From Candidatus Poribacteria bacterium (GTDB lineage: Bacteria > Poribacteria > WGA-4E > WGA-3G): DNA of 64,000 nt. Position numbers and translations under genes: made by a program. The notes under the pieces are model-generated. The model saw only the letters and a list, made by a program, of their open reading frames with translations. It did not search any database and was not told the origin of the DNA. The stretch's first letter is position 1; every line of letters starts with the position of its first letter. Below are positions 52,760 to 64,000 of the stretch, one piece after another. The DNA lies in NCBI GenBank assembly GCA_965247285.1, contig CBDFHD010000002.1, positions 548,632 through 612,631 on the forward strand, read 5' to 3'.

Positions 52760-53590
52760 CTAAGTCTGTTCTTTTAAACGCTCAAGCTCCTCTCGGAGTT
52801 GTGCGATCTCCATTTCCGCTTTCTGGCGTGCCGAGGCTTCCTGTTCAGCGCGTGTTTCAGCCGTTTGTGCGCGTGTGGCTTCCTGTTCAGCGCGTGTTTC
52901 AGCCGTTTGTGCGCGTGTGGCTTCCTGTTCAGCGCGTGTTTCAGCCGTTTCAGCTCGTGCTAATGCTAACTCCGCGTATGCTAATGCTGACTCCGCCGGC
53001 GTTTGCAGCCAATTATCCCCAACCGGATCGTAAATACCTAAACCCACATCACCAACATAGAAATCTAAACCGAGAGCAGTGGAGTGCAGACCCCCATTTG
53101 GACCTGCCGAAATCGGGACATACGAACCATCAACCAAGGTAAAACCCATTATAGGCGACGGTAAATATAGACCCTCCGCATCATACAAGAAATAGTCTTG
53201 GATCCCCAATAAAGCGTAGAGTTCCATCTTGTGACCTAAGTCGTTGCGATAGGTGCTTTTGCTGGAAAACTCCATCACAAAATCAGGTACCTTTCCCTCC
53301 TCCCAGACGAGATACGTCCGTCGGAGTTTCTTACCTAAGCCAAAAGCGACCAGAACATCCGGCGAAACCGATTTACGCGGGTCTCCTTCCACGTAATACA
53401 TGAGTATATCACCAGAGATATAGACCCCTGGATTTTCTTCAAAATGGGTGTCAAGGACTTGTAAAGTCCGCATGAGGATACGCCTGTGAAGGTCGCTGAC
53501 GGCCATGGGTTTTCCATCCTCTTCGGGGTAAAGTTCCGCGTCCTCTGTAGGGGCGTAGGGGATATGATTCCTGTTTCTGTAGGTGTCCAT
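52760..53590 (-). CDS. Uma2-family (DUF820) putative restriction-endonuclease-like protein with repetitive C-terminal tail
   Basis: Start moved to ATG 53590 (SD GGAGGG; MDTYRNRNHIPYAPTEDAELYPEEDGKPMAVSDLHRR...). C-terminus is (AETRAEQEATRAQT)n, then coiled-coil. Confidence 0.6.
   Translation of the reverse strand: MDTYRNRNHIPYAPTEDAELYPEEDGKPMAVSDLHRRILMRTLQVLDTHFEENPGVYISGDILMYYVEGDPRKSVSPDVLVAFGLGKKLRRTYLVWEEGKVPDFVMEFSSKSTYRNDLGHKMELYALLGIQDYFLYDAEGLYLPSPIMGFTLVDGSYVPISAGPNGGLHSTALGLDFYVGDVGLGIYDPVGDNWLQTPAESALAYAELALARAETAETRAEQEATRAQTAETRAEQEATRAQTAETRAEQEASARQKAEMEIAQLREELERLKEQT
52836..52961. repeat. perfect tandem repeat, 42 bp x 3 (third copy diverges at its end), inside the Uma2 C-terminal coding region
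   Basis: GGCTTCCTGTTCAGCGCGTGTTTCAGCCGTTTGTGCGCGTGT repeated; read from sequence. Confidence 0.85.
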
Positions 53591-53660
53591 CAGTGTCCCT
53601 CCCATTTCGTGAGATACCTGAATACACGAGCATTTTGTTCTATATAACCTTACGAAAAGA

Positions 53661-54833
53661 TTATGCCGGCGGCGCATACCTCGCATCGATCCACGCGCGT
53701 TGTTTACCGCTGTCGACAGCCGCATTGATGAAATGTACCCCGCGAGCCCCATCTTGAACGGTTGGAAAATCTGTGTCGAATTCAGTCGGGGTTTCGCCTG
53801 ATATTTTTGCGGCTATTGTCCGCCCTGCGTTTACATAAACATTTGCGAATGCCTCAATGAACGCTTCAGGGTGTCCGAAGGGTATCCGCGAATTGTGTTG
53901 GACGACCTCCGACAGATAATCGTTCCCACGTTTGTAAACATGTTCGGGACCATCTGGAAAACGGACATAGAGGTAGTTCGGATTTTCTTGTTGCCATTCC
54001 AGCGACGCGTCAGTGCCGTAGACACGGATACGCAAATTGTTCTCTTCACCTACCGAGATTTGTGACGCATAAAGTACCCCGCGGACTCCGTTTTCATAGT
54101 GCACGAGTAGGTTTCCATCGTCTTCTAACAAGCGTCCCTCTACAAAAGTGGTCATATCCGCACAGATTTCTTCGATGTCGAGTCCTGTGATATAGTGTGC
54201 CAAATTCTCGGCGTGGGAACCGATGTCCCCGATACACGAGGAGGCACCCGCTTGATTCGGATCGGTACGCCAGACGGCTTGTTTCGCGCCTTCGTTCTCT
54301 AAAAATGTGGCGAGCCAGCCTTGAGGGTATTCTACGACGATTTTGCGAAGTTTTCCGAGTTTTCCGTCTTTCACGAGTTCGCGTGCCTGCTTCACCATCG
54401 GATAGCCTGTGTAGTTGTGTGTGAGCGCAAAAACGACATCGTGTTCTTTGACGAGGCTGCATAGCGTTTCAGCATCGGCGACTGTCGTTGTCATCGGTTT
54501 ATCACAGACGACATGAAACCCGGCTTCAATAAAGGTTTTGGCGACATCGAAATGGATATGGTTCGGTGTCACAATTGAGACGAAGTCAATGCGTTCGCCA
54601 TCGGGTAGCTGACGCTCTTTCTCTGCCATTTCTTGGTAAGACCCGTAGACTCGATTTGCATCGAGGAAGAGTTCAGCACCTTGTTGTCGGGATTTTTCGG
54701 GTGATGATGAAAACGCACCCGCAACGAGTTCAATTTCTCCGTCAAGTGCTGCGGCTTTACGATGGACGGCACCGATAAACGCGTCCGGTCCACCACCTAC
54801 CATGCCGTAACGTATTTTCCTGTTCAGTGGCAT
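53661..54833 (-). CDS. Gfo/Idh/MocA family oxidoreductase
   Basis: IRYGMVGGGPDAFIGAVH Rossmann motif; CDKPM motif. Confidence 0.85.
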   Translation of the reverse strand: MPLNRKIRYGMVGGGPDAFIGAVHRKAAALDGEIELVAGAFSSSPEKSRQQGAELFLDANRVYGSYQEMAEKERQLPDGERIDFVSIVTPNHIHFDVAKTFIEAGFHVVCDKPMTTTVADAETLCSLVKEHDVVFALTHNYTGYPMVKQARELVKDGKLGKLRKIVVEYPQGWLATFLENEGAKQAVWRTDPNQAGASSCIGDIGSHAENLAHYITGLDIEEICADMTTFVEGRLLEDDGNLLVHYENGVRGVLYASQISVGEENNLRIRVYGTDASLEWQQENPNYLYVRFPDGPEHVYKRGNDYLSEVVQHNSRIPFGHPEAFIEAFANVYVNAGRTIAAKISGETPTEFDTDFPTVQDGARGVHFINAAVDSGKQRAWIDARYAPPA

Positions 54834-55427: not shown

Positions 55428-56225
55428 CTAAGAGGGAGTTAGCATTGCGGCTATGTCTTCCGGTAGTTTAATCTCATGTTTCTGCTCAAAGTCGGCAACG
55501 TTTTCATAGTCTTTGCGAAACTGTTCAGTGATGATATTTTCCTGCTTGTCTCTGGCAGTCGTAAGATCTTCTTTGGATTTTTCCCATTCTTGCAAGCGTA
55601 CAAACATCATACCGCGATTGTAGTATGGCTCTGCTAAATCGGGTTTGCGTTCTATCGCCACGTTATAGTCTTTGATGGCACGTTCATACTCGCCTTTTTT
55701 ACTGTAGACATTACCACGATTGTTGTAGGGATGGACAAGGTCAGGTCTCAGTTCTATTGCTTTGGTATAATCTATGATTGCGAGATCATACTCTTCTCTT
55801 TCATAGTAAACAATACCACGGTTGTAATAGGCGTAAGCAAAACTGGGATCAAGTTCTATTGCTGTGTTATAGTCTTTAATAGCAGGCTCTATCTCACCTT
55901 TGAGTTTATAAACTATCCCGCGATTGTTATAGGCTTCTGGCAAATTTGGGTCAAGTCTTATCGCTGTGTTACAATCTTCAAATGCGCGATCATAGTCCTT
56001 TTTCATGCGGTAAGCTGCGCCGCGATTGCTGTATGCCTCGGCATAGTTTTCCTTGCGCCTAATAGCTGTGTTGAAGTCTTCAATAGCGCGGTCAATTTCA
56101 CCTTTATTACCATAAGCGATGCCACGATAGTTATAGGGTGTGGCAAAACTTGGTCTTTCTATAATTAGTTTGGTAAAACGTTGGATGGTGCTATCGTTAG
56201 GATCCTGTACAACTTCGGGCTTCAT
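55428..56225 (-). CDS. TPR-repeat protein (cytoplasmic)
   Basis: Seven or eight canonical 34-aa TPR units (AYxNRGxxYxxKGEYDRAIxDYNxAIxLxP). Confidence 0.85.
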   Translation of the reverse strand: MKPEVVQDPNDSTIQRFTKLIIERPSFATPYNYRGIAYGNKGEIDRAIEDFNTAIRRKENYAEAYSNRGAAYRMKKDYDRAFEDCNTAIRLDPNLPEAYNNRGIVYKLKGEIEPAIKDYNTAIELDPSFAYAYYNRGIVYYEREEYDLAIIDYTKAIELRPDLVHPYNNRGNVYSKKGEYERAIKDYNVAIERKPDLAEPYYNRGMMFVRLQEWEKSKEDLTTARDKQENIITEQFRKDYENVADFEQKHEIKLPEDIAAMLTPS

Positions 56226-56259
56226 GTTTATGTCTCCGTTATGTTTGGTATTGAGTGTA

Positions 56260-56943
56260 TCAAGTCTTCAAAGTATCTTCAATCAACTCCATTTCGGCTT
56301 GATAAATTCCTATAGAGGTTTTCTGGTGGCTGCTCTGGTCTCTAATGAACCCGTGGAGATCGTTGTAGACGGTCTGTGTTGAGATACCGTGCTGTTTTTG
56401 CAGATGATCTAATATCGGTTCTTTGAGCGATTTAGGAATGTCAATGACATCATACTGTCCTGATTCGAGAAAACCTTTGGGAGGTCGAACAAATATGCTT
56501 TTCTGTGTTATGACACGGTTTCTTGGATTCTGTGGTTCCCTAATTTTGTAATCTTCATTTGTCTTTTCAGTTCTTTGAAATAAAATTATCCTGCCGGGTT
56601 TGTCAAGGAAGCCGTCGCATGCGAAGAAAAGGGCTATGTGGTTATCGGTTGTAAAGTCTATTAGATTGGTATGGCCGCCGTAGTGTTGAAGTTCCGTCAA
56701 GATTTCAAAGGGATCTGTTTCGTGGGTATAGTCTTTCGCTGCTTCGAGCATTCGCTCTTGGATGGCTTCTATACCAAACTCCTCTGTCCCAATTTCTTCC
56801 CGGCATTCACGCCACAGGCTTGAAGATACCTTCTCATAATGTTGAGGTTCGCCGCGATAGATGAAGTCACCATCGGCGGTCATTTCTGCTATCCTACCGA
56901 TTATCTCCAAAATCCTGTTCAGTTCGGTTTCTTGTGTGTTCAA
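56260..56943 (-). CDS. FRG-domain protein
   Basis: FIYRGEPQHYEKVSSSLWR ... LQHYGGHTNLIDFTTDNHIALFFA matches the FRG signature (FRGq...L.PS..R ... AQHYG.PT.LLDwT.sp.vAl.FA). Confidence 0.65.
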   Translation of the reverse strand: MNTQETELNRILEIIGRIAEMTADGDFIYRGEPQHYEKVSSSLWRECREEIGTEEFGIEAIQERMLEAAKDYTHETDPFEILTELQHYGGHTNLIDFTTDNHIALFFACDGFLDKPGRIILFQRTEKTNEDYKIREPQNPRNRVITQKSIFVRPPKGFLESGQYDVIDIPKSLKEPILDHLQKQHGISTQTVYNDLHGFIRDQSSHQKTSIGIYQAEMELIEDTLKT

Positions 56944-57264: not shown

Positions 57265-57342
57265 AATATCTACCTCTTCCTATAAGCAGTTAGAGAAAGT
57301 ATATCACGACTTGCGGTGAATTCTCAATTGTTTTAGTAGAAT

Positions 57343-57463
57343 AGGACTTACGCACGTTGCTCTTTTGTAGCATAACCTGTTAGGTTGTGTCAAGAAACCG
57401 TCTGCGTTTTTTACACGATCTCTCTTTCAAGGCGCGGGCGATGCTCAAAATTGCGTAAGTCCT
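57343..57463. mobile_element. MITE-like element family A, second copy (perfect 12-bp TIRs AGGACTTACGCA / TGCGTAAGTCCT)
   Basis: About 97 percent identical to 13440..13560. Confidence 0.7.
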
Positions 57464-57487
57464 ATAGAAAATTTCTAATTGACGAAT

Positions 57488-57610
57488 TAGAGATTCGGTG
57501 TTTTTTGTCTGAATCGCAGATTTACGCGGATTGGCTCGGATGACGCGGATTATTGTCTGAATCGCGGATTGTCGCGGATGACGCAGATTTCGCGGATTGA
57601 AGAGGTTATT
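57488..57610. repeat. two GTCTGAATCGC-anchored arrays of degenerate tandem nonamers (CGCGGATTA / ACGCGGATG-like)
   Basis: gtctgaatcgcagatttacgcggattggctcggatgacgcggattatt and gtctgaatcgcggattgtcgcggatgacgcagatttcgcggatt read from sequence. Confidence 0.7.
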
Positions 57611-58030
57611 CTATCGCCGCCATCCACCTGTGGATCCGTGATTGGGTTGTGTGAGAATCAATCTTTTTATTTCTAAGCTTTTCGACCCGAAATTGAGTAA
57701 TAAGCCTATTTCTAAGCGATACGCCTTCAGGTAGTTTAATATCTGTGCCTCATGCACATCTTCCAGGGCAGAGATTGCTTTTAATTCCACCAACACTTCT
57801 CCTGCTACTACAAAATCTGCTCTGCGAGTACCGATTGGCTCTTGGAAATCTTTATAAAAAATATCCTGTTCAATTTCGCGAGCGAATTCCAGCCCTGCTT
57901 TTCTCATTTCTATAGCCAACGCTCGCTGATAAATTACCTCTTGAAAACTGTTACCCATAAACTTATGTACCTCAAATGCAGCTCCAATAATCTTTTGCGT
58001 TATATTCTGATGTTTCAGGTTATTGTTCAT
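57611..58030 (-). CDS. GxxExxY protein (PD-(D/E)XK-like nuclease superfamily)
   Basis: IIGAAFEVHKFMGNSFQEVIYQRALAIEMRKAGL...GTRRADFVV..EVLVELKA matches the GxxExxY family pattern. Confidence 0.7.
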   Translation of the reverse strand: MNNNLKHQNITQKIIGAAFEVHKFMGNSFQEVIYQRALAIEMRKAGLEFAREIEQDIFYKDFQEPIGTRRADFVVAGEVLVELKAISALEDVHEAQILNYLKAYRLEIGLLLNFGSKSLEIKRLILTQPNHGSTGGWRR

Positions 58031-58057
58031 TTATTTGGGGTATCCTTTTATATGTCT

Positions 58058-58362
58058 GAATCGCGGATTACATGGATTACACGGATTGCGCGGATTATTG
58101 ACTTGGCATATCTGAACCTCGCTTTCACAAAAACACATGTCTGAATCAGGGGTGACATGGATTTCTCGGATTTTTTATCCTTGCCCATTCCAAATTTACT
58201 TTCACAAAAGACGTTTGAATCGCATAACACTTAATGAAGAAAAGTCTATACTTTTTTCACCAAGATTGCCTAAAGCGTATTTTACTACAGAGCGGACACG
58301 GATAACGAAAACACAAAAATCCGTGTAATCCGCGCAATCCGCGTAATCCGCGATTCAGACAA
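58058..58362. repeat. GTCTGAATC-anchored GGATTAC(A/G)(C/T) nonamer arrays plus an approximately 80-bp tandem duplicated unit, closed by an inverted copy (58316..58362)
   Basis: gtctgaatcgcggattacatggattacacggattgcgcggattatt ...; second unit gtctgaatcagggg...ctttcacaaaagacg; inverted copy aaatccgtgtaatccgcgcaatccgcgtaatccgcgattcagacaa. Confidence 0.7.
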
Positions 58363-58376
58363 TTTATTCCACCGCA

Positions 58377-58480
58377 CCCTCCACAATCGCAATCTCATCG
58401 GGGGTTAAATCGTATAAGGTGTATACCAGATGGTCAATCTCATTTTCGAGATTGGAAATGTCTACATAGGATTGCCTGTT
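58377..58480 (-). pseudogene. remnant 3' end of a TaqI_C-type methyltransferase gene (encodes ...SYVDISNLENEIDHLVYTLYDLTPDEIAIVEGAVE then stop)
   Basis: Manual minus-strand translation. About 85 percent nt identity to the 3' end and downstream repeat of the 62320..62782 gene (direct repeat 58321..58460 versus 62272..62420). Confidence 0.6.
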
Positions 58481-58516
58481 AGGATAAGCGTTAGGTTTGT
58501 GTATTCGGGGTTTGTT

Positions 58517-58630
58517 GTCAGAATCGCGGATTACCGCGGATTACACGGATTACGCAGATTTTAAGAGTGCCTCTGCTCGTAGTAGCGCGATTCATCGCGG
58601 CTCTTTCTGAATCTCGGATTACGCGGGTTG
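58517..58630. repeat. further GTCAGAATCGCGGATTACCGCGGATTACACGGATTACGCAGATT nonamer array, plus CTGAATCTCGGATTACGCGGG
   Basis: Read from sequence. Confidence 0.7.
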
Positions 58631-58706
58631 GAAATCTGCCATCAGTAATATGTAACCTCTGATATTCCGGTACCAGCGGCGCGAAGTAATTAACTTTCTC
58701 GTCATA

Positions 58707-59663
58707 TCACACTAAACATTTCTCGAACGCTTTGATAAACGAAATTTTGCCTTCACACATTTGTTTCCGAATTCTCAATATTTCCCATGCAGTAGGCAGT
58801 CCCTTCACCACGATTTCTGCGTCGATTTGTAAGCGTAGAAATAATTGATTTAGCTCTTTGATAATATACTCGCGTAGACATGCCTGTGCCCACTTTAATG
58901 TTATGCTTCTATACATACCATAAAATTCATTCCAGTTTTCAGAGTTATAATCTCGTTGGCTCCAGCCCCACCGCTCTGTTGCCCTTGCTATGAAAAGTTT
59001 CGTTTCTTGAGCATAGTGTTTAGTATTAAAGTTTGTGGGCCACTCCTGCACACTTACTGTGTATTTTAAAAAAGATGGAACGAGATCCGGAAACCGTACG
59101 AGTTTCTTGAGCATTGCACGATGCCCCCGGTACCCGCCTAACTTTTCCGGCATTACGATATCCCAGATATCCGTTTCTGTGATACTATCATAGGGTTTGT
59201 CGTGGGGATGACGGTGTGTTTGCGGAAGTATTCGGGTATACCTTCCAAATACCCGCAACAACCACTGATAAGCGAATGCATGCAATCTATATACTCCATT
59301 GTTTTCTTTATCCCAGAAAATCTTGCGGACTGACCGACCTTCCCATACGAGTTCCAAAACAATTGCTTCTACGGCATCACTTAACAATTTCTTCAAGGGC
59401 TGCCGACTATACCGGTTGTACTCATACCTACGAACAAGTGACTCCAAAATTGCTACTACACGAGGTTCATCACTATCTTTACCTTGTATCTCTACAGAAA
59501 AGTTGGGAGCGTGATCTGACTCACCTCCGATCGGCATTATCCCAAGCCGAGCATCTTCTAGGAACATAGATAGATTCAAATTGTGATTGACTTCTTCCCT
59601 AAGTTTGGAAAAGGACTTAGCAACACGCGGTGTTTTCAAACGTTTGTGGGATTTAGGTTTCAT
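58707..59663 (-). CDS. hypothetical protein (318 aa), second gene of the two-gene cassette; no recognisable domain
   Basis: ATG 59663 overlaps the TGA of the upstream 866-aa gene (ATGA), indicating translational coupling. Basic N-terminus MKPKSHKRLKTPRVAKS. Confidence 0.5.
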   Translation of the reverse strand: MKPKSHKRLKTPRVAKSFSKLREEVNHNLNLSMFLEDARLGIMPIGGESDHAPNFSVEIQGKDSDEPRVVAILESLVRRYEYNRYSRQPLKKLLSDAVEAIVLELVWEGRSVRKIFWDKENNGVYRLHAFAYQWLLRVFGRYTRILPQTHRHPHDKPYDSITETDIWDIVMPEKLGGYRGHRAMLKKLVRFPDLVPSFLKYTVSVQEWPTNFNTKHYAQETKLFIARATERWGWSQRDYNSENWNEFYGMYRSITLKWAQACLREYIIKELNQLFLRLQIDAEIVVKGLPTAWEILRIRKQMCEGKISFIKAFEKCLV

Positions 59664-62260
59664 GATCCTTGATGCCTTGTATTATGGTTTTCTTCTCTTC
59701 TAATATCTTCTTCGAGGTCTCTACGATTCCGCTTCCAACCGAAATCAAGATTTTCTCCGACTTCCTGTTGGCGAACGTACTTGGCGATAAAAATGTCAAT
59801 TCCATCATAGGGCATGTAGGGGAAAGGCTGGGATCGTCCAGCGAAAATTCTCACCAAGGCACTTTCGTGTACCGGAACTGTGTCGGGCTCAGGGTCAACA
59901 ATGATACGATTTGGATCGGGCGGGATTTCTTGGCGTTCCACATTCGCCAGAAGTCGTTGTATCATTTGCTTCCATCTGGTCCTATTTATACCACGGTGTT
60001 CAATCTCGAAACCAGATTCGGAGAGCGAGGTAGCTGCTGCAAGAGATTGAAGACGTTGATTTTCTTGTTCTTCGTTGAGGTATTTATCCCATGCTTTCAC
60101 TATGGGTTCCTTCAGGCGTGGTGTTTCGTGATAGTCAGAAAGCAGATACGCGTAGCCACTAATATCCATCAGATCCAAAAGAGGTGCAGCAGCGATTTTT
60201 AAATTATTCAGATTCTGCCAATCAGTTCCCAATTCTTCAGAACGCAGTTTGTCAAACTGTAATAGACTGCCGCCGAAGTAATGACCGAAAATTGTTTCGA
60301 TCAACTCGCAATCATTCTCAACCATAGCGACAAATAACGCTTCTCCAACAGTGTGAAGGAATTGTCCGGCAAAATCTGGATAAGATTCAGGTCTTGATAT
60401 CAAGGAGAGTAGGAGATTTTCTTCGGACATGAGTTTCAAAAGTTCCTTATGTCGCTGCCTGCATTTTTCCACCAGTTCCTCAATATCTAAACTTGGCCAA
60501 GGAATTCCTTCGATCCGCCGGTCAGAATTTAAATCACTCCAAAAATCGTTCAAGGTATCCATGTGGTGATCAAGCTTATTCCAGTACTCTAACTCTCCTG
60601 ATACAATCACTGTCTCCAACCATGGATGTCGTGAGGATTTCGCAATTTCTATCCAATGTTTGTAGAGTTCACATGCCTTTTCACAAAAACTGATTAGTGC
60701 TTTGTGAAGATTCTCCACTTCTTTTTGCACAGTTAGTTCTTGAAGATACCAGGATGCGCTGATGACGTGCCCTTCAACTCTATCCTCAAAAGCTAGTTTT
60801 GGGCGCAGCCATTCAAGTCGTTCCAAGACATGTACTGCGAAACCTGTTCTGTAAATTGACCTTTCTGATTTCCATTTGATGTGATGAATTCGTTGGAGTA
60901 TTGCATCTCGTCTATGAGACTTAATAGTGCTAATGTAGGCCAAAAAAACATTAATTGGCATTGCTGCTAACTGTGTACAAATTTGCATATGTTCCAAGGG
61001 TTCTTCTGTAACAAGGTTATCCTTTTCAGCAAAGATGAATTTTTCACACCATGAAAAAATGTCACTTATCAGGTTGAATGCATATTCAATTTGGTGATCT
61101 GCTGCAAGTAGTCGAACATAAATGTCAAGACGATTTAGCAATTCAATGACTATCGGATAGCGTTTCTCTTCCATATTGATTTCCAAACAACGCCCCACAA
61201 TTGGCAATATTGCAGATTCAATCCATCTGAGGTCGCTTACGGTTTCCGGCTGTAGTCCAGTGGCCGTTTCGTATGCCAAAGATGTCTTTGTATCACTCGT
61301 TCTATACCAATCCGGGTGCACATATTTTTGCCGGTACCACAAACTACCGGTGGGAATTGATTTTTTTATTCTTTCATAATCACATAAAAATACAAGGAGA
61401 TTTTTGCACAGATCTGCGAATGGACGACCATTGAGATACGGTTCTTCGGCCGCTATGTCGGACACAGCGGTTAGGGTATTTATAGTATTTTGGGCGCGCT
61501 GACGGGTATAATTTTGGAACGAAGGATCTAACCAACGATACCCACCCGCCTGCACTTGTCGGTGGTACTGGAATAACTGTTTGAAGAGACGATGTGAGAG
61601 AATTGTGGGATCGAAGAAATAAAAGGCACGAGCACCTAATCGGACAAATCCAATAATCATAACCCCTGCACCTAGTATAAGGAGTGGTATTGCTAATATG
61701 ATCGGTTCAAAACCTGCGGTGTGAAAAGCAAGTAAACACACACCGAAAGAGGTAAGCAAGGCAAGCAAGCGCATGTACACGTTGCCAACTTGTTCTTTGG
61801 CTAGTAAGTCCCGGATGTCATTGGGTAGTCTCGCGTAGATAGCACCACCTATTGTGCTGATGGCAGCATAGTAAAGACCGATGAATATTCCGCCTACCGC
61901 GATCACTGTTTCAAGCAAGGTCCCGTAAGTGCTATCCTCAGGAATAGTGAAGCCTATCTTTGTGAACAAAGGAACACAATAAGGATTAATGCCTTGGAGT
62001 CCGATAGTTATGAAGATCGCCAAGATTAGTTGGCCTAATATAGACCACAATAGAGAAAATAGAGATTTCGTTACTGTACCGCCTTCTCGCACACGGTGTT
62101 TTATTCCGAACAGCGTTCTGTAGGAGAAGAATCCGAGACGCGAAAAAGCGTTTCTGGCCTTCCAGAAGATTCGAGTTTGAGCAAAAGAAAGAAATAGAGT
62201 GTTAAACATCGTTAGTCGTTCATAGAGGCTTCCGAATTGCAGATAAGTCCGAAATGACAC
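59660..62260 (-). CDS. hypothetical large membrane protein (866 aa): N-terminal four or five transmembrane helices plus about 600-aa soluble alpha-helical domain; first gene of the two-gene cassette
   Basis: TM segments LFSLLWSILGQLILAIFITIGL, VIAVGGIFIGLYYAAISTIGGAIYA, LLALLTSFGVCLLAFHTAGF, IILAIPLLILGAGVMIIGFV. No P-loop or nuclease motif seen. Annotated start is GTG at 62260 with no SD; an alternative ATG at 62209 (MFNTLFLSF...) is possible. Confidence 0.5.
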   Translation of the reverse strand: MSFRTYLQFGSLYERLTMFNTLFLSFAQTRIFWKARNAFSRLGFFSYRTLFGIKHRVREGGTVTKSLFSLLWSILGQLILAIFITIGLQGINPYCVPLFTKIGFTIPEDSTYGTLLETVIAVGGIFIGLYYAAISTIGGAIYARLPNDIRDLLAKEQVGNVYMRLLALLTSFGVCLLAFHTAGFEPIILAIPLLILGAGVMIIGFVRLGARAFYFFDPTILSHRLFKQLFQYHRQVQAGGYRWLDPSFQNYTRQRAQNTINTLTAVSDIAAEEPYLNGRPFADLCKNLLVFLCDYERIKKSIPTGSLWYRQKYVHPDWYRTSDTKTSLAYETATGLQPETVSDLRWIESAILPIVGRCLEINMEEKRYPIVIELLNRLDIYVRLLAADHQIEYAFNLISDIFSWCEKFIFAEKDNLVTEEPLEHMQICTQLAAMPINVFLAYISTIKSHRRDAILQRIHHIKWKSERSIYRTGFAVHVLERLEWLRPKLAFEDRVEGHVISASWYLQELTVQKEVENLHKALISFCEKACELYKHWIEIAKSSRHPWLETVIVSGELEYWNKLDHHMDTLNDFWSDLNSDRRIEGIPWPSLDIEELVEKCRQRHKELLKLMSEENLLLSLISRPESYPDFAGQFLHTVGEALFVAMVENDCELIETIFGHYFGGSLLQFDKLRSEELGTDWQNLNNLKIAAAPLLDLMDISGYAYLLSDYHETPRLKEPIVKAWDKYLNEEQENQRLQSLAAATSLSESGFEIEHRGINRTRWKQMIQRLLANVERQEIPPDPNRIIVDPEPDTVPVHESALVRIFAGRSQPFPYMPYDGIDIFIAKYVRQQEVGENLDFGWKRNRRDLEEDIRREENHNTRHQGS

Positions 62261-62271
62261 AGAATCTTAAA

Positions 62272-62315
62272 AATCCGCGTTAATCTGTGTAATCCGCGTA
62301 AATCCGCGATTCAGA
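62272..62315. repeat. inverted GGATTAC-nonamer array / GATTCAGAC anchor downstream of the methyltransferase 3' end (part of direct repeat B)
   Basis: aatccgcgttaatctgtgtaatccgcgtaaatccgcgattcagacaa read from sequence. Confidence 0.7.
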
Positions 62316-62319
62316 CAAT

Positions 62320-62782
62320 TTATTCCACCGCACCCTCCAGAATCGCAATCTCATCGACAGTTAAGTCGTATAAAACGTATACCAATTTATCAATCTCATT
62401 TTCAAGGGTAGAAACGTCCGCGTCTAAGTCAGCGCGTTTGACGTTGAGAATCTGATCGACTAAAGTTGCAACCGAAGTCTGCTCTCCAACTGAACGTGAA
62501 ATTAAGGGTATTGCTAATAAAGGTTGCTTGTCAATTTGATAATTTGTCCCTTGCATTTTTCCCCTATGTTTCAACCAAAAAGTGACAAGCCTTGAATTCA
62601 AGAGCCCCGTCAAGTATTTTAGATTGATTCTTTTCGTCTTAATTAGAAAAAAAGTTTGCGATACATAGCTATCAAAATCAACATAGGTAAATATAGGTCT
62701 TGCCCATTTTCTGACCGATATAATCTTCTCTCCTTGAAAAATAGACTGTTTTCTTGATCTATGCAATCCATAAGGTTTATTA
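62320..62782 (-). CDS. C-terminal TaqI_C-type target-recognition domain of a type IIG restriction-modification / BREX PglX-like N6-adenine methyltransferase (3' piece of a gene disrupted by an IS)
   Basis: KPYGLHRSRKQSIFQGEKIISVRKWARP ... LKYLTGLLNSRLVTFWLKHRG ... LVYVLYDLTVDEIAILEGAVE are TaqI_C hallmarks. After removing the IS and one TA, the reading frame is continuous with the 63826..64000 piece. Confidence 0.6.
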
Positions 62783-63823
62783 GACATTATAACGATTAAA
62801 TTGCAAGTTGTCATTAGTCTATGTTAGAATCTTAAAAAGTATTATTTTTGAGGTAGACCCATGACAAGTTATCAAGACCTAAAGGATAAACCGAAACGAT
62901 TCCATTCTTTGACAGGATACACGCCCGAAGAATTTTCTGCGATCGCTCCCACCTTTTCTAAGTGTTTTTTAGAGTTTGTCGAAACAAACACACTGGATGG
63001 AGAACGCCGAAAAAAACGGAAGTATTGCTCGTATAAAAATAGTTTCTTACCCAGTATTGAGGATAAGCTGCTGTTTATTTTCATTTACCTGCGAAAGGCA
63101 GTGACACAAGATGTGCTCGGTGAACTCTTCGGTGTGTCTCAACCTGTAGCGAATAAATGGATCCACCGACTTTTGCCCATCGTCAATCGTGCTTTGGCAG
63201 CCCTTGGGGAGTTACCATCTCGAGAGCCAGACCCCTCAACTTTTGATACGCCTGGGGATACTTCGTCTGACAATCAAGTTTCAAATCATTTTTTTTCAGG
63301 ATAGCACTGAGCGTCCGATACAACGTCCCAAAGACCCACAAAGACAAAAGGCTTATTATAGTGGTAAAAAGAAACAACATACCCACAAGAATAACTTGGT
63401 CATTGATGCTGCGTGCAAAGTTGTGTTATTGACACCCACTTGTGAAGGCAGAATACATGACAAGCGTATCGCTGATGCCACTCGTTATTGTCTGCCAAAT
63501 GGTAGTACTTTGTTTCAAGATTCGGGTTTTCAAGGATTTAGCCTTCAAGGAATAAACATCATTCAACCGAAAAAGAAACCCAAAGGACGAGACCTCACGC
63601 TTGAAGAAAAAGAGAGGAATCGTCTTATTTCATCCATCCGTGTCCGAGTCGAACATGTGATGAGTGGTATCAAAAGATACCGCATCGTAAAAGATAAGCT
63701 GCGCAACTGGAAAAAAGGGTTTAGTGATTTAGTTATGGAAACATGTTGTGGGTTACACAACTTTAGATTAAACTTCCGACCTTGGTGTTATAAGACGACT
63801 ATTGATTAAACCATTATAATGTC
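62783..63823 (+). mobile_element. IS5-family (DDE_Tnp_4-type) insertion sequence, about 1041 bp, imperfect 20-bp terminal inverted repeats, TA target-site duplication
   Basis: IRL GACATTATAACGATTAAATT (62783..62802) versus IRR reverse complement GACATTATAATGGTTTAATC (63804..63823). Flanking TA at 62781..62782 and 63824..63825. Confidence 0.7.
62861..63809 (+). CDS. IS5-family transposase, two overlapping frames (orfA 62861..63304, orfB 63189..63809), probably joined by a -1 frameshift at a T8 run
   Basis: orfA has a HTH-like N-terminus. orfB has a DDE_Tnp_4-like core (VIDAACKV.., DSGFQG, RVRVEHVMSGIKRYRIV). T8 tract at about 63283..63290, where the frames overlap. Confidence 0.7.
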
Positions 63824-63825
63824 TA

Positions 63826-64000
63826 TTACTAGAAGTGATTACATCTTGGAACTTATCAAGATGTTTTTTTATATTAGGATAATCTTCTATCTTTTTCTTA
63901 TCTTTTTTAAAGCTGGAATCAGTGTAGATTACCCATTTACGGTTTATAGGGTTAGCATAATGACGATTCAATTCTTGGGTTGTATAACAAGGATTTATGA
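63826..64000 (-). CDS. upstream (more N-terminal) piece of the IS-disrupted TaqI_C-domain methyltransferase gene; continues beyond the right window edge
   Basis: Encodes ...NRHYANPINRKWVIYTDSSFKKDKKKIEDYPNIKKHLDKFQDVITSSN, then enters the IS. Frame-continuous with 62320..62782 after IS excision. Confidence 0.5.

Follow-up and report, generated by a model that had tools for sequence, protein, structure and literature searches.

Conserved inverted end-modules around GxxExxY genes in many phyla suggest an undescribed selfish DNA element

The window analysed here is a 64,000-nucleotide (nt) stretch of contig CBDFHD010000002.1 (positions 548,632 to 612,631) from a Candidatus Poribacteria sponge symbiont, and its subject is a set of short repeat arrays around a small gene of the GxxExxY family. 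Each array is a module of about 45 nt, with a sharp 5' edge between TT and GTCTGAATC followed typically by four units of 9-10 nt that carry a phased GATT or GGA core. The anchor reads (T)TGTCTGAATC or a variant with one mismatch, and 2-5 contiguous degenerate units (e.g., GCGGATTAC and ACACGGATT) come after it. In line with the at least eight arrays of the original prediction, the window contains eight such modules, all inside 57.5-62.3 kb (57.5-58.65 kb, and again 62.26-62.32 kb). In the 64 kb there are 7 exact copies of the anchor GTCTGAATC versus 0.59 expected (at least 7 in 0 of 100 shuffles); six of the seven precede phased units and lie within one 4.8-kb stretch (57.5-62.3 kb), and the remaining one, at position 100, lacks units and is a chance occurrence. 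Tandem Repeats Finder returned a period of 9-10 with 3.8-3.9 copies for four of the window arrays. The predicted layout was also borne out, in that the GxxExxY gene lies between arrays and inverted copies follow both methyltransferase 3' ends, each starting 3 nt past the stop codon. Other details needed revision: the starts first given for the plus-strand arrays were off by 0-4 nt (19 nt for the first array), those of the inverted arrays missed the low-coordinate end by 2 and 9 nt, and the conserved part is not a fixed GGATTAC(G/A)C nonamer but the GATT (or GGA) core in its 9-10-nt phase. The arrays and the GxxExxY gene are arranged as follows (aa, amino acids).

57507-57551, plus strand: array, anchor GTCTGAATC and four units; outer of the two arrays 3' of the GxxExxY gene, in 'R' orientation relative to the minus-strand gene; kept in 10 sister strains
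57555-57598, plus strand: array, anchor and four units; 'R' orientation, inner end 12 nt from the GxxExxY stop codon
57611-58030, minus strand: GxxExxY gene, 139 aa, minimal PD-(D/E)XK nuclease fold
58054-58097, plus strand: array, anchor and four units; right arm of a 307-bp inverted pair, anchor 23 nt 5' of the GxxExxY ATG with the ribosome-binding site between them
58139-58172, plus strand: degenerate array, exact anchor and decayed units, inside the 307-bp unit
58213: bare anchor-like GTTTGAATC
58318-58360, minus strand: array, anchor and four units; left arm of the 307-bp pair
58517-58560, plus strand: array, anchor variant GTCAGAATC and four units; far end of a 3.8-kb segment
58605-58630, plus strand: short degenerate array, anchor TTCTGAATC and two units
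62263-62316, minus strand: array, anchor and 4-5 units

The 307-bp inverted pair (58054-58360) has 48-nt arms (58053-58100 and 58314-58361) that are 85% complementary, and the array at 58517-58560 is 89% complementary to 62281-62318. A pattern scan for GTCTGAATCGCGGATT over one genome per species (596 Gb) matched at least 120 stretches, and the Poribacteria array counts given here rest on the 914 kb of matches listed. In column statistics of 153 of these Poribacteria arrays, conservation begins abruptly 2 nt outside the anchor, nothing is conserved farther out, and the number of units is strongly peaked at four (107 of 153). The GATT cores fall at +13, +22, +30/31, and +39/40. Given the abrupt boundary, the lack of outer conservation, and the peak at four units, the array is a module of fixed length and not a free microsatellite. 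CRISPR repeats had been dismissed at the outset, correctly: the 9-10-nt units are contiguous, degenerate, and spacer-free, in contrast to the 23-50-nt identical repeats with unique spacers of CRISPR loci, and CRISPR and tRNA searches returned nothing.

The protein encoded between the arrays is a member of a large family. It matches PF13366 (PDDEXK_3; E = 3.8e-36, 124.4 bits versus a cut-off of 22) and TIGR04256 (E = 1e-37, 129.1 bits versus a cut-off of 35), and the family comprises 14,683 clusters at 50% identity (E <= 1e-3). AlphaFold, run with a diverse alignment, predicts a PD-(D/E)XK fold with confidence (pLDDT, the model's per-residue score, of 92), and the alpha-beta-beta-beta-alpha-beta core and D...ExK motif that define the PD-(D/E)XK superfamily are both present. 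The E...D...ExK motif is intact, and the catalytic residues are near-invariant in the family, whereas a sequence search of the PDB matched no solved structure. Fused tandem duplicates also occur, with two GxxExxY domains in 250-290 aa (P0122, P0123, P0157-P0163, and others; L216), a hint that the protein works as a dimer or a larger assembly. The sole survey that we found to name the family describes it as of unknown function and notes multiple transfers (PMC3424549). A phage origin of the gene was rejected, with relatives on only 2 viral contigs.

The original prediction had proposed a check for arrays at GxxExxY genes elsewhere, and they flank the gene in most of the 80 metagenome loci that we compared. 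These loci were picked solely by how well their protein matched six aligned GxxExxY sequences; they show 57-80% protein identity, span 29-61% GC, and come from many habitats. Most share a common architecture, with an anchor and about four units 5' of the ATG, then the gene, then inverted units and an anchor at or overlapping the stop codon. The array profile found matches <=200 bp upstream of the gene in 61 of 71 loci (60 of them forward) and downstream in 52 of 73 (49 inverted), and there was no match on either side in 5 of 64 loci. By this profile, array density reaches 2.48/kb up to 250 bp from the gene versus 0.145/kb beyond. To avoid circularity, the training set of a second and less sensitive profile was restricted to Poribacteria arrays detected by the pattern scan; this profile gave 0.68/kb near the gene versus 0.028/kb farther off, with forward orientation in 18 of 18 upstream matches and inverted orientation in 12 of 15 downstream matches. 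Taking both profiles together, arrays are 17-24 times denser beside the GxxExxY gene than at a distance, and a regular-expression detector agrees with the profile result. Compact units cluster at 468-482 bp from anchor to anchor. The unit sequence drifts by lineage (ACGGATT, CTGATT, ATGATT, GTTGATT, AGGATT) with the GATT core positions and the anchor GTCTGAAYC kept, and members of only 42-51% identity retain phased GATT arrays with variant anchors. The arrays are conserved inverted end-modules of GxxExxY genes across bacteria, a point that the original prediction had overlooked. The canonical element reads 5'-TT GTCTGAAYC, four GATT-phased units, ATG...GxxExxY...stop, four inverted units, GRTTCAGAC AA-3'.

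The position of these units relative to neighboring genes is equally regular. In 31 of 40 loci a co-directional upstream open reading frame (ORF) ends <=8 nt from the anchor, and in 18 of those 31 the host stop codon is the TGA within GTCTGA. The compact units sit exactly at host-gene 3' ends. The canonical element, about 470-560 bp long, occupies the very 3' end of its host gene, which is most often a restriction-modification (RM) or histidine-kinase gene: HATPase_c histidine kinases account for 9 of 40 hosts and RM genes for about 12 of 40 (N6_Mtase, Eco57I, HsdR C-terminus, HsdS, Type ISP, and TaqI_C), the remainder being Cas4 and assorted housekeeping genes. Downstream neighbors include HsdR, HsdS, RhuM, and Cas1, and no integrase or transposase recurs among the neighbors of the 80 metagenome loci. 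In at least 7 loci, the host 3' end is duplicated (62-81 bp) against both anchors: one copy stops at the left anchor, and the second, with the native C-terminus intact, begins 0-4 nt past the right anchor. The kinase duplications may go back to one event, but the duplication in L160 involves a host gene other than a kinase. A remnant of comparable kind is present in the window. Sharp-edged inverted end-modules of GxxExxY genes are established in several phyla, at host-gene ends and especially at RM loci. As to CRISPR-associated genes near GxxExxY elements, one upstream ORF is Cas4 and two downstream ORFs are Cas1 among L121-L200. A survey of reverse transcriptases met a GxxExxY gene next to a CRISPR-associated reverse transcriptase (bioRxiv 10.1101/2021.01.26.428298).

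In Poribacteria, the end-modules have multiplied far beyond the gene. About 277 chance matches of GTCTGAATCGCGGATT are expected in 596 Gb, and singletons without units fit chance. The GTCTGAATCGCGGATT stretches among the matches listed come nearly all from Candidatus Poribacteria metagenome-assembled genomes, in which an anchor with its first unit is abundant, and true arrays were also present among them in Latescibacterota, Bacteroidota (including Chitinophagaceae), and Balneolaceae. The motif is scattered through Poribacteria genomes and occurs in other phyla, so it is not specific to the locus where it was first noticed. The 914 kb of Poribacteria matches hold about 216 arrays, 199 (~92%) of them intergenic, and 5 GxxExxY genes (a ratio of about 40:1); all five genes have arrays within ~140 bp on both sides. 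Orientation to genes is mixed, with 67 arrays antisense between co-directional genes. Tail-to-tail pairs, with the anchors outward, are favored (30, of which 26 are <380 bp) and have preferred sizes near 149 and 295-335 bp, which the 307-bp pair of the window fits, whereas head-to-head pairs number only 13 and are scattered in size. Arrays also flank other cargo (TIR-TPR, FRG, and ORFs without known function), and a search for a transposase inside long-range array pairs (L055, L057, L077, and window 58517-62316) found cargo genes only. The modules of this sponge symbiont occur solo, in tandem, and as gene-less inverted pairs.

Several further repeats were seen in the same genomes. Poribacteria intergenic DNA is a mosaic that includes GGGACTGGGTTYCCCTGTCC hairpins and CCCAGCGGGGCGACATGT motifs (L070 1400-4200; L030/L035/L064/L096), and GGGTGTGTAAAG...TTGTCAC modules stand directly 5' of many anchors. 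There is a variant array family with anchor GTCTGAACC and units AGGAAAGAC, and a 282-bp miniature inverted-repeat transposable element (MITE) with ends ATGAAGATTAAnnnATTAATTCGGTAATT.

At the window locus, the arrays border the following additional features.

58361-58462, minus strand: methyltransferase 3' remnant, Eco57I/TaqI_C type, 97% to L202 5576-
58707-62260, minus strand: two ORFs (318 aa and up to 866 aa), cargo of the 3.8-kb segment
62320-62777, minus strand: methyltransferase C-terminal part, TaqI_C/Eco57I type (PF12950, E = 1.1e-10)

Ten contigs of related Poribacteria (L201-L210) encode a protein 99% identical to the window GxxExxY protein, and the block [array - 213 nt - inverted array] - GxxExxY - two arrays is kept in 10 of 10 strains. 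On the methyltransferase side, genes are wholly strain-specific (methyltransferase alone, methyltransferase with FRG-TPR, cyclic-nucleotide (cNMP)-TIR proteins, or an IS3 element). Homology with the window begins 5-8 nt outside the anchor at 58360 for L205, L206, and L208, at the inner end of array 58318-58360 for L203, and at 58447, inside the methyltransferase remnant, for L209; for L202 it includes the ~100-nt remnant itself (58361-58462). The remnant is orthologous to the end of the intact gene of L202, L204, and L207, and since the L202 homology spans it, it is the leftover of an L202-type gene. Array 58318-58360 starts 3 nt after the stop codon of this remnant, and array 62263-62316 starts 3 nt after that of the methyltransferase ORF at 62320-62777, an allele 81% identical to that of L202 and interrupted upstream by an IS5-family element. 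The two methyltransferase 3' ends (58361-58462 and 62320-62418) are 86% identical over 118 nt, the matching stretch of the second copy being 62301-62418. Between them, the 3.8-kb segment 58517-62316 is bounded by inverted arrays and absent from six strain loci compared by BLAST. Pfam, NCBIfam, and PADLOC gave no match for its 318-aa ORF or for the longer one (up to 866 aa), and none of the loci fetched contains a relative; as array-bounded cargo within a defence island, the two ORFs may be a new defence gene pair. Anchors in the island lie 23-38 nt 5' of the start codons of cassette genes. The suggestion that the arrays serve as cassette-exchange sites at an RM locus fits the strain comparison, with homology of the ten sister strains lost at, within, or just beyond array 58318-58360. 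The multiplied end-modules mark gene-to-gene junctions of a strain-variable defence island; in Poribacteria, it is established that arrays are far more numerous than the gene and that breakpoints between strains fall at them.

Other observations concern the island itself. In it, TPR proteins accompany an FRG-domain protein that matches PDC-S15, a PADLOC candidate system (window 55428-56943), and the corresponding position in sister strains is occupied by TIR, cNMP-binding/CAP12-PCTIR, SNF2/PLD, and type IIG genes; this variety of defence genes at one site identifies a hypervariable defence island. A separate 123-bp MITE (57342-57464), whose 13-nt inverted ends TAGGACTTACGCA are perfect and whose 5-bp target duplication reads TAGAA, occurs in the window and in several strains, with a clean empty site in L202, L204, L207, and L208. 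The IS5-family element that splits the methyltransferase gene (62778-63828) has 35-nt inverted ends and an HTH_Tnp_4 ORF with an overlapping DDE ORF. A perfect 42-bp tandem repeat (52835-52950, 2.8 copies, 100% match) lies within a Uma2-family ORF (52760-53752). In L207 (5784-5978), there is a 161-bp tandem duplication of an array, the ribosome-binding site, and the first 110 nt of the GxxExxY gene, with GTAAT microhomology between gene and array at the junction; it is either real or an assembly artefact.

Taken together, the conserved end-pieces around GxxExxY genes in many phyla suggest an undescribed selfish DNA element, and we consider it probable that the arrays are the terminal modules of small elements of this kind, with the GxxExxY nuclease as their only consistent gene, and of derivatives of such elements. 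GxxExxY subunits would line up next to one another on the four phased GATT cores, and their cut would fall at the anchor or beside it. Host recombination repair of the breaks would then copy the element into new gene ends and could also swap whatever lies between two arrays; such repair would leave duplicated or remnant host-gene 3' ends of the type observed. Several observations weigh against this interpretation. The window gene itself has arrays of the same orientation on both sides and not the canonical inverted pair, and no recognisable arrays surround members of ~41% identity in two distant contexts (L213/L214 and L215). The strain comparison, in which breakpoints fall at the anchor or within the array, yielded no clean empty site for an anchor-to-anchor unit, nor was one obtained for a canonical element. 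The homology of L202 and L209 runs past the anchor at 58360 and ends at 58447-58456. Flanks of about 30 pairs contain no classical short target-site duplication (the TT/AA beside the anchors are part of the repeat, because they are inverted and not direct), and the histidine-kinase loci may all stem from one old insertion. Highly similar 149-bp array pairs (97-99% identical in one Poribacteria genome) sit within the separate 282-bp MITE, which has its own inverted ends, so their spread is not the arrays' own doing; as passengers, these pairs were rejected as proof of autonomous array transposition. Finally, a PD-(D/E)XK protein of 125 aa that serves on its own as transposase or homing enzyme would, to our knowledge, be without precedent.

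Some of these points would suit a different explanation, which we regard as unlikely, namely that another enzyme (a host recombinase or an unlinked transposase) moves or recombines the arrays, which would be generic intergenic repeats with GxxExxY only as favored cargo or a hitch-hiker. Such repeats could well outnumber the gene ~40:1 in Poribacteria, flank other cargo (TIR-TPR, FRG, and other ORFs), and be carried as a pair inside another MITE, and no activity is known for the GxxExxY protein. It is harder to reconcile them with a gene that is the sole one consistently found between arrays in 80 loci of many lineages, with the lack of any recombinase or transposase recurring nearby, or with arrays and protein that diverge together while the GATT core is kept.

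We also evaluated an RNA role, in which inverted arrays would pair in a read-through transcript into a long stem enclosing the GxxExxY ORF and the stem would be cut in an RNase III-like manner (as in rRNA intervening sequences), freeing the host operon mRNA of the insert. The arm duplex is predicted at about -32 kcal/mol versus -10 for shuffled arms, and the elements are co-directional within operons, right behind host stop codons. However, stability is slightly greater for the antisense duplex (-34 versus -32 for sense, p=0.007), G-U-type mismatches (48) are rarer than A-C-type mismatches (89), and left units (GATTA) show a systematic A-A clash with right units (GATTT). Arrays commonly stand alone or share one orientation, orientation to genes is mixed in Poribacteria, and a stem has no need of 9-nt phased direct repeats. 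Rfam 15 gave no match at gathering score in the window or in 20 related loci (a chance snoRNA match had E=0.94). The stability of the antisense duplex, the mismatch pattern, the A-A clashes, and the mixed gene orientation suggest that the constraint acts on DNA, and we judge an RNA role to be improbable. A sense-strand-specific RNA stem was unsupported, the antisense duplex being no weaker. A CsrA-like GGA sponge or 5' untranslated-region element was set aside, as orientation to genes is mixed.

A comparably low probability is given to regulatory modules, that is, to an operator, insulator, or promoter-terminator that is bound by a regulator (possibly a non-cutting GxxExxY protein) and controls the cassette genes. 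The distances in the island, where anchors lie 23-38 nt before start codons and 3 nt after stop codons, would be appropriate for such modules, and four phased sites resemble cooperative operator arrays; but regulation accounts poorly for the mixed gene orientation, including the 67 antisense arrays between co-directional genes, or for near-invariant nuclease catalytic residues, and the sharp ends and the spread over unrelated host genes and phyla look like insertion. Slippage-prone contingency tracts, put forward in the original prediction, whose length would switch gene expression, are hardly credible: short tandem units do adjoin RM genes and one L210 array has 3 instead of 4 units, but this is the only change of unit number in 10 strains (otherwise a 2-nt indel in L205 and one replaced array in L203), a stability that speaks against such tracts, and the units are degenerate, not identical, sharply peaked at four, and placed outside coding frames and not as promoter spacers.

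Returning to the selfish-element interpretation, we tentatively propose a broader version, although we hold it to be somewhat doubtful. GxxExxY proteins may be the enzymes of a new class of mobile elements, in which a stand-alone PD-(D/E)XK nuclease assembles on four helically phased GATT sites per end, which home to the 3' ends of RM, kinase, and CRISPR-associated genes, and whose ends seed genome-wide repeat families and drive defence-island cassette exchange in some lineages such as sponge-symbiont Poribacteria. No description of GxxExxY-linked arrays was found in the literature searched, and one may exist elsewhere. The conserved, phased, inverted end-modules of the GxxExxY genes and their precise position at the ends of defence and signalling genes provide a large family of unknown function (PF13366/TIGR04256) with a concrete, testable role and define a candidate DNA substrate, and they account for a dominant intergenic repeat of Poribacteria genomes. 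They also point to a possible way in which defence cassettes are shuffled between strains, a process that is otherwise poorly understood. In annotation, cassette junctions and remnant gene ends can be recognised simply by the arrays.

Among known systems, Tn7, Mu, Tn402, and IS21 have ends with several subterminal binding sites, and TnsA is a PD-(D/E)XK enzyme in Tn7 end cleavage. The elements described here resemble them in their 5'-TGT...ACA-3' termini, several direct sites, systematically different left and right ends, and a PD-(D/E)XK enzyme. They differ in that the sites are 9-10 nt long versus 19-22 nt, the element is ten times smaller, and neither a DDE partner nor a 5-bp duplication was seen. 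MITEs and insertion sequences share with the arrays the terminal inverted modules, the intergenic site, and gene-less short derivatives (the 307-bp pair of the window; pairs of ~149 bp and 295-335 bp elsewhere), whereas the arrays come without a short target-site duplication and without a DDE, HUH, or serine/tyrosine transposase; within the window, the MITE at 57342-57464 provides the contrast, with clean terminal inverted repeats, a 5-bp duplication, and an empty site. As in integron cassettes, short site-like modules separate promoter-less genes and breakpoints of strain variation fall at the modules, but the arrays lack the imperfect palindrome of attC (R''-L''/L'-R') and are paired in inverted orientation around a nuclease gene, and no integron integrase was present among the neighbors of the 80 loci or in the scanned part of the window (ORFs at 52.7-63.8 kb). 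Free-standing homing endonuclease genes include the PD-(D/E)XK enzyme I-Ssp6803I and the phage T4 seg/mob genes. They are likewise lone tiny nuclease genes between or at the ends of conserved genes, spread across lineages, with neighboring host-gene ends rearranged or duplicated; they are not known to carry terminal inverted repeat arrays, and no cleavage site is known for GxxExxY.

The closest analogy is with the REP sequences and REPINs of RAYT transposases, reportedly treated by Nunvar et al. in 2010 and Bertels & Rainey in 2011, in which dispersed repeats also stand on either side of the gene of their own enzyme. In both cases, a small enzyme gene is flanked by cognate intergenic repeats that far outnumber it and that occur as singlets and inverted doublets without target duplication. 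REP is an imperfect palindrome with a GTAG head, whereas the array consists of a non-palindromic anchor and four phased direct units, and RAYT is an HUH/Y1 (IS200-like) enzyme, whereas GxxExxY has a PD-(D/E)XK fold. Unlike REP sequences, the canonical GxxExxY unit contains the gene and sits at host-gene 3' ends.

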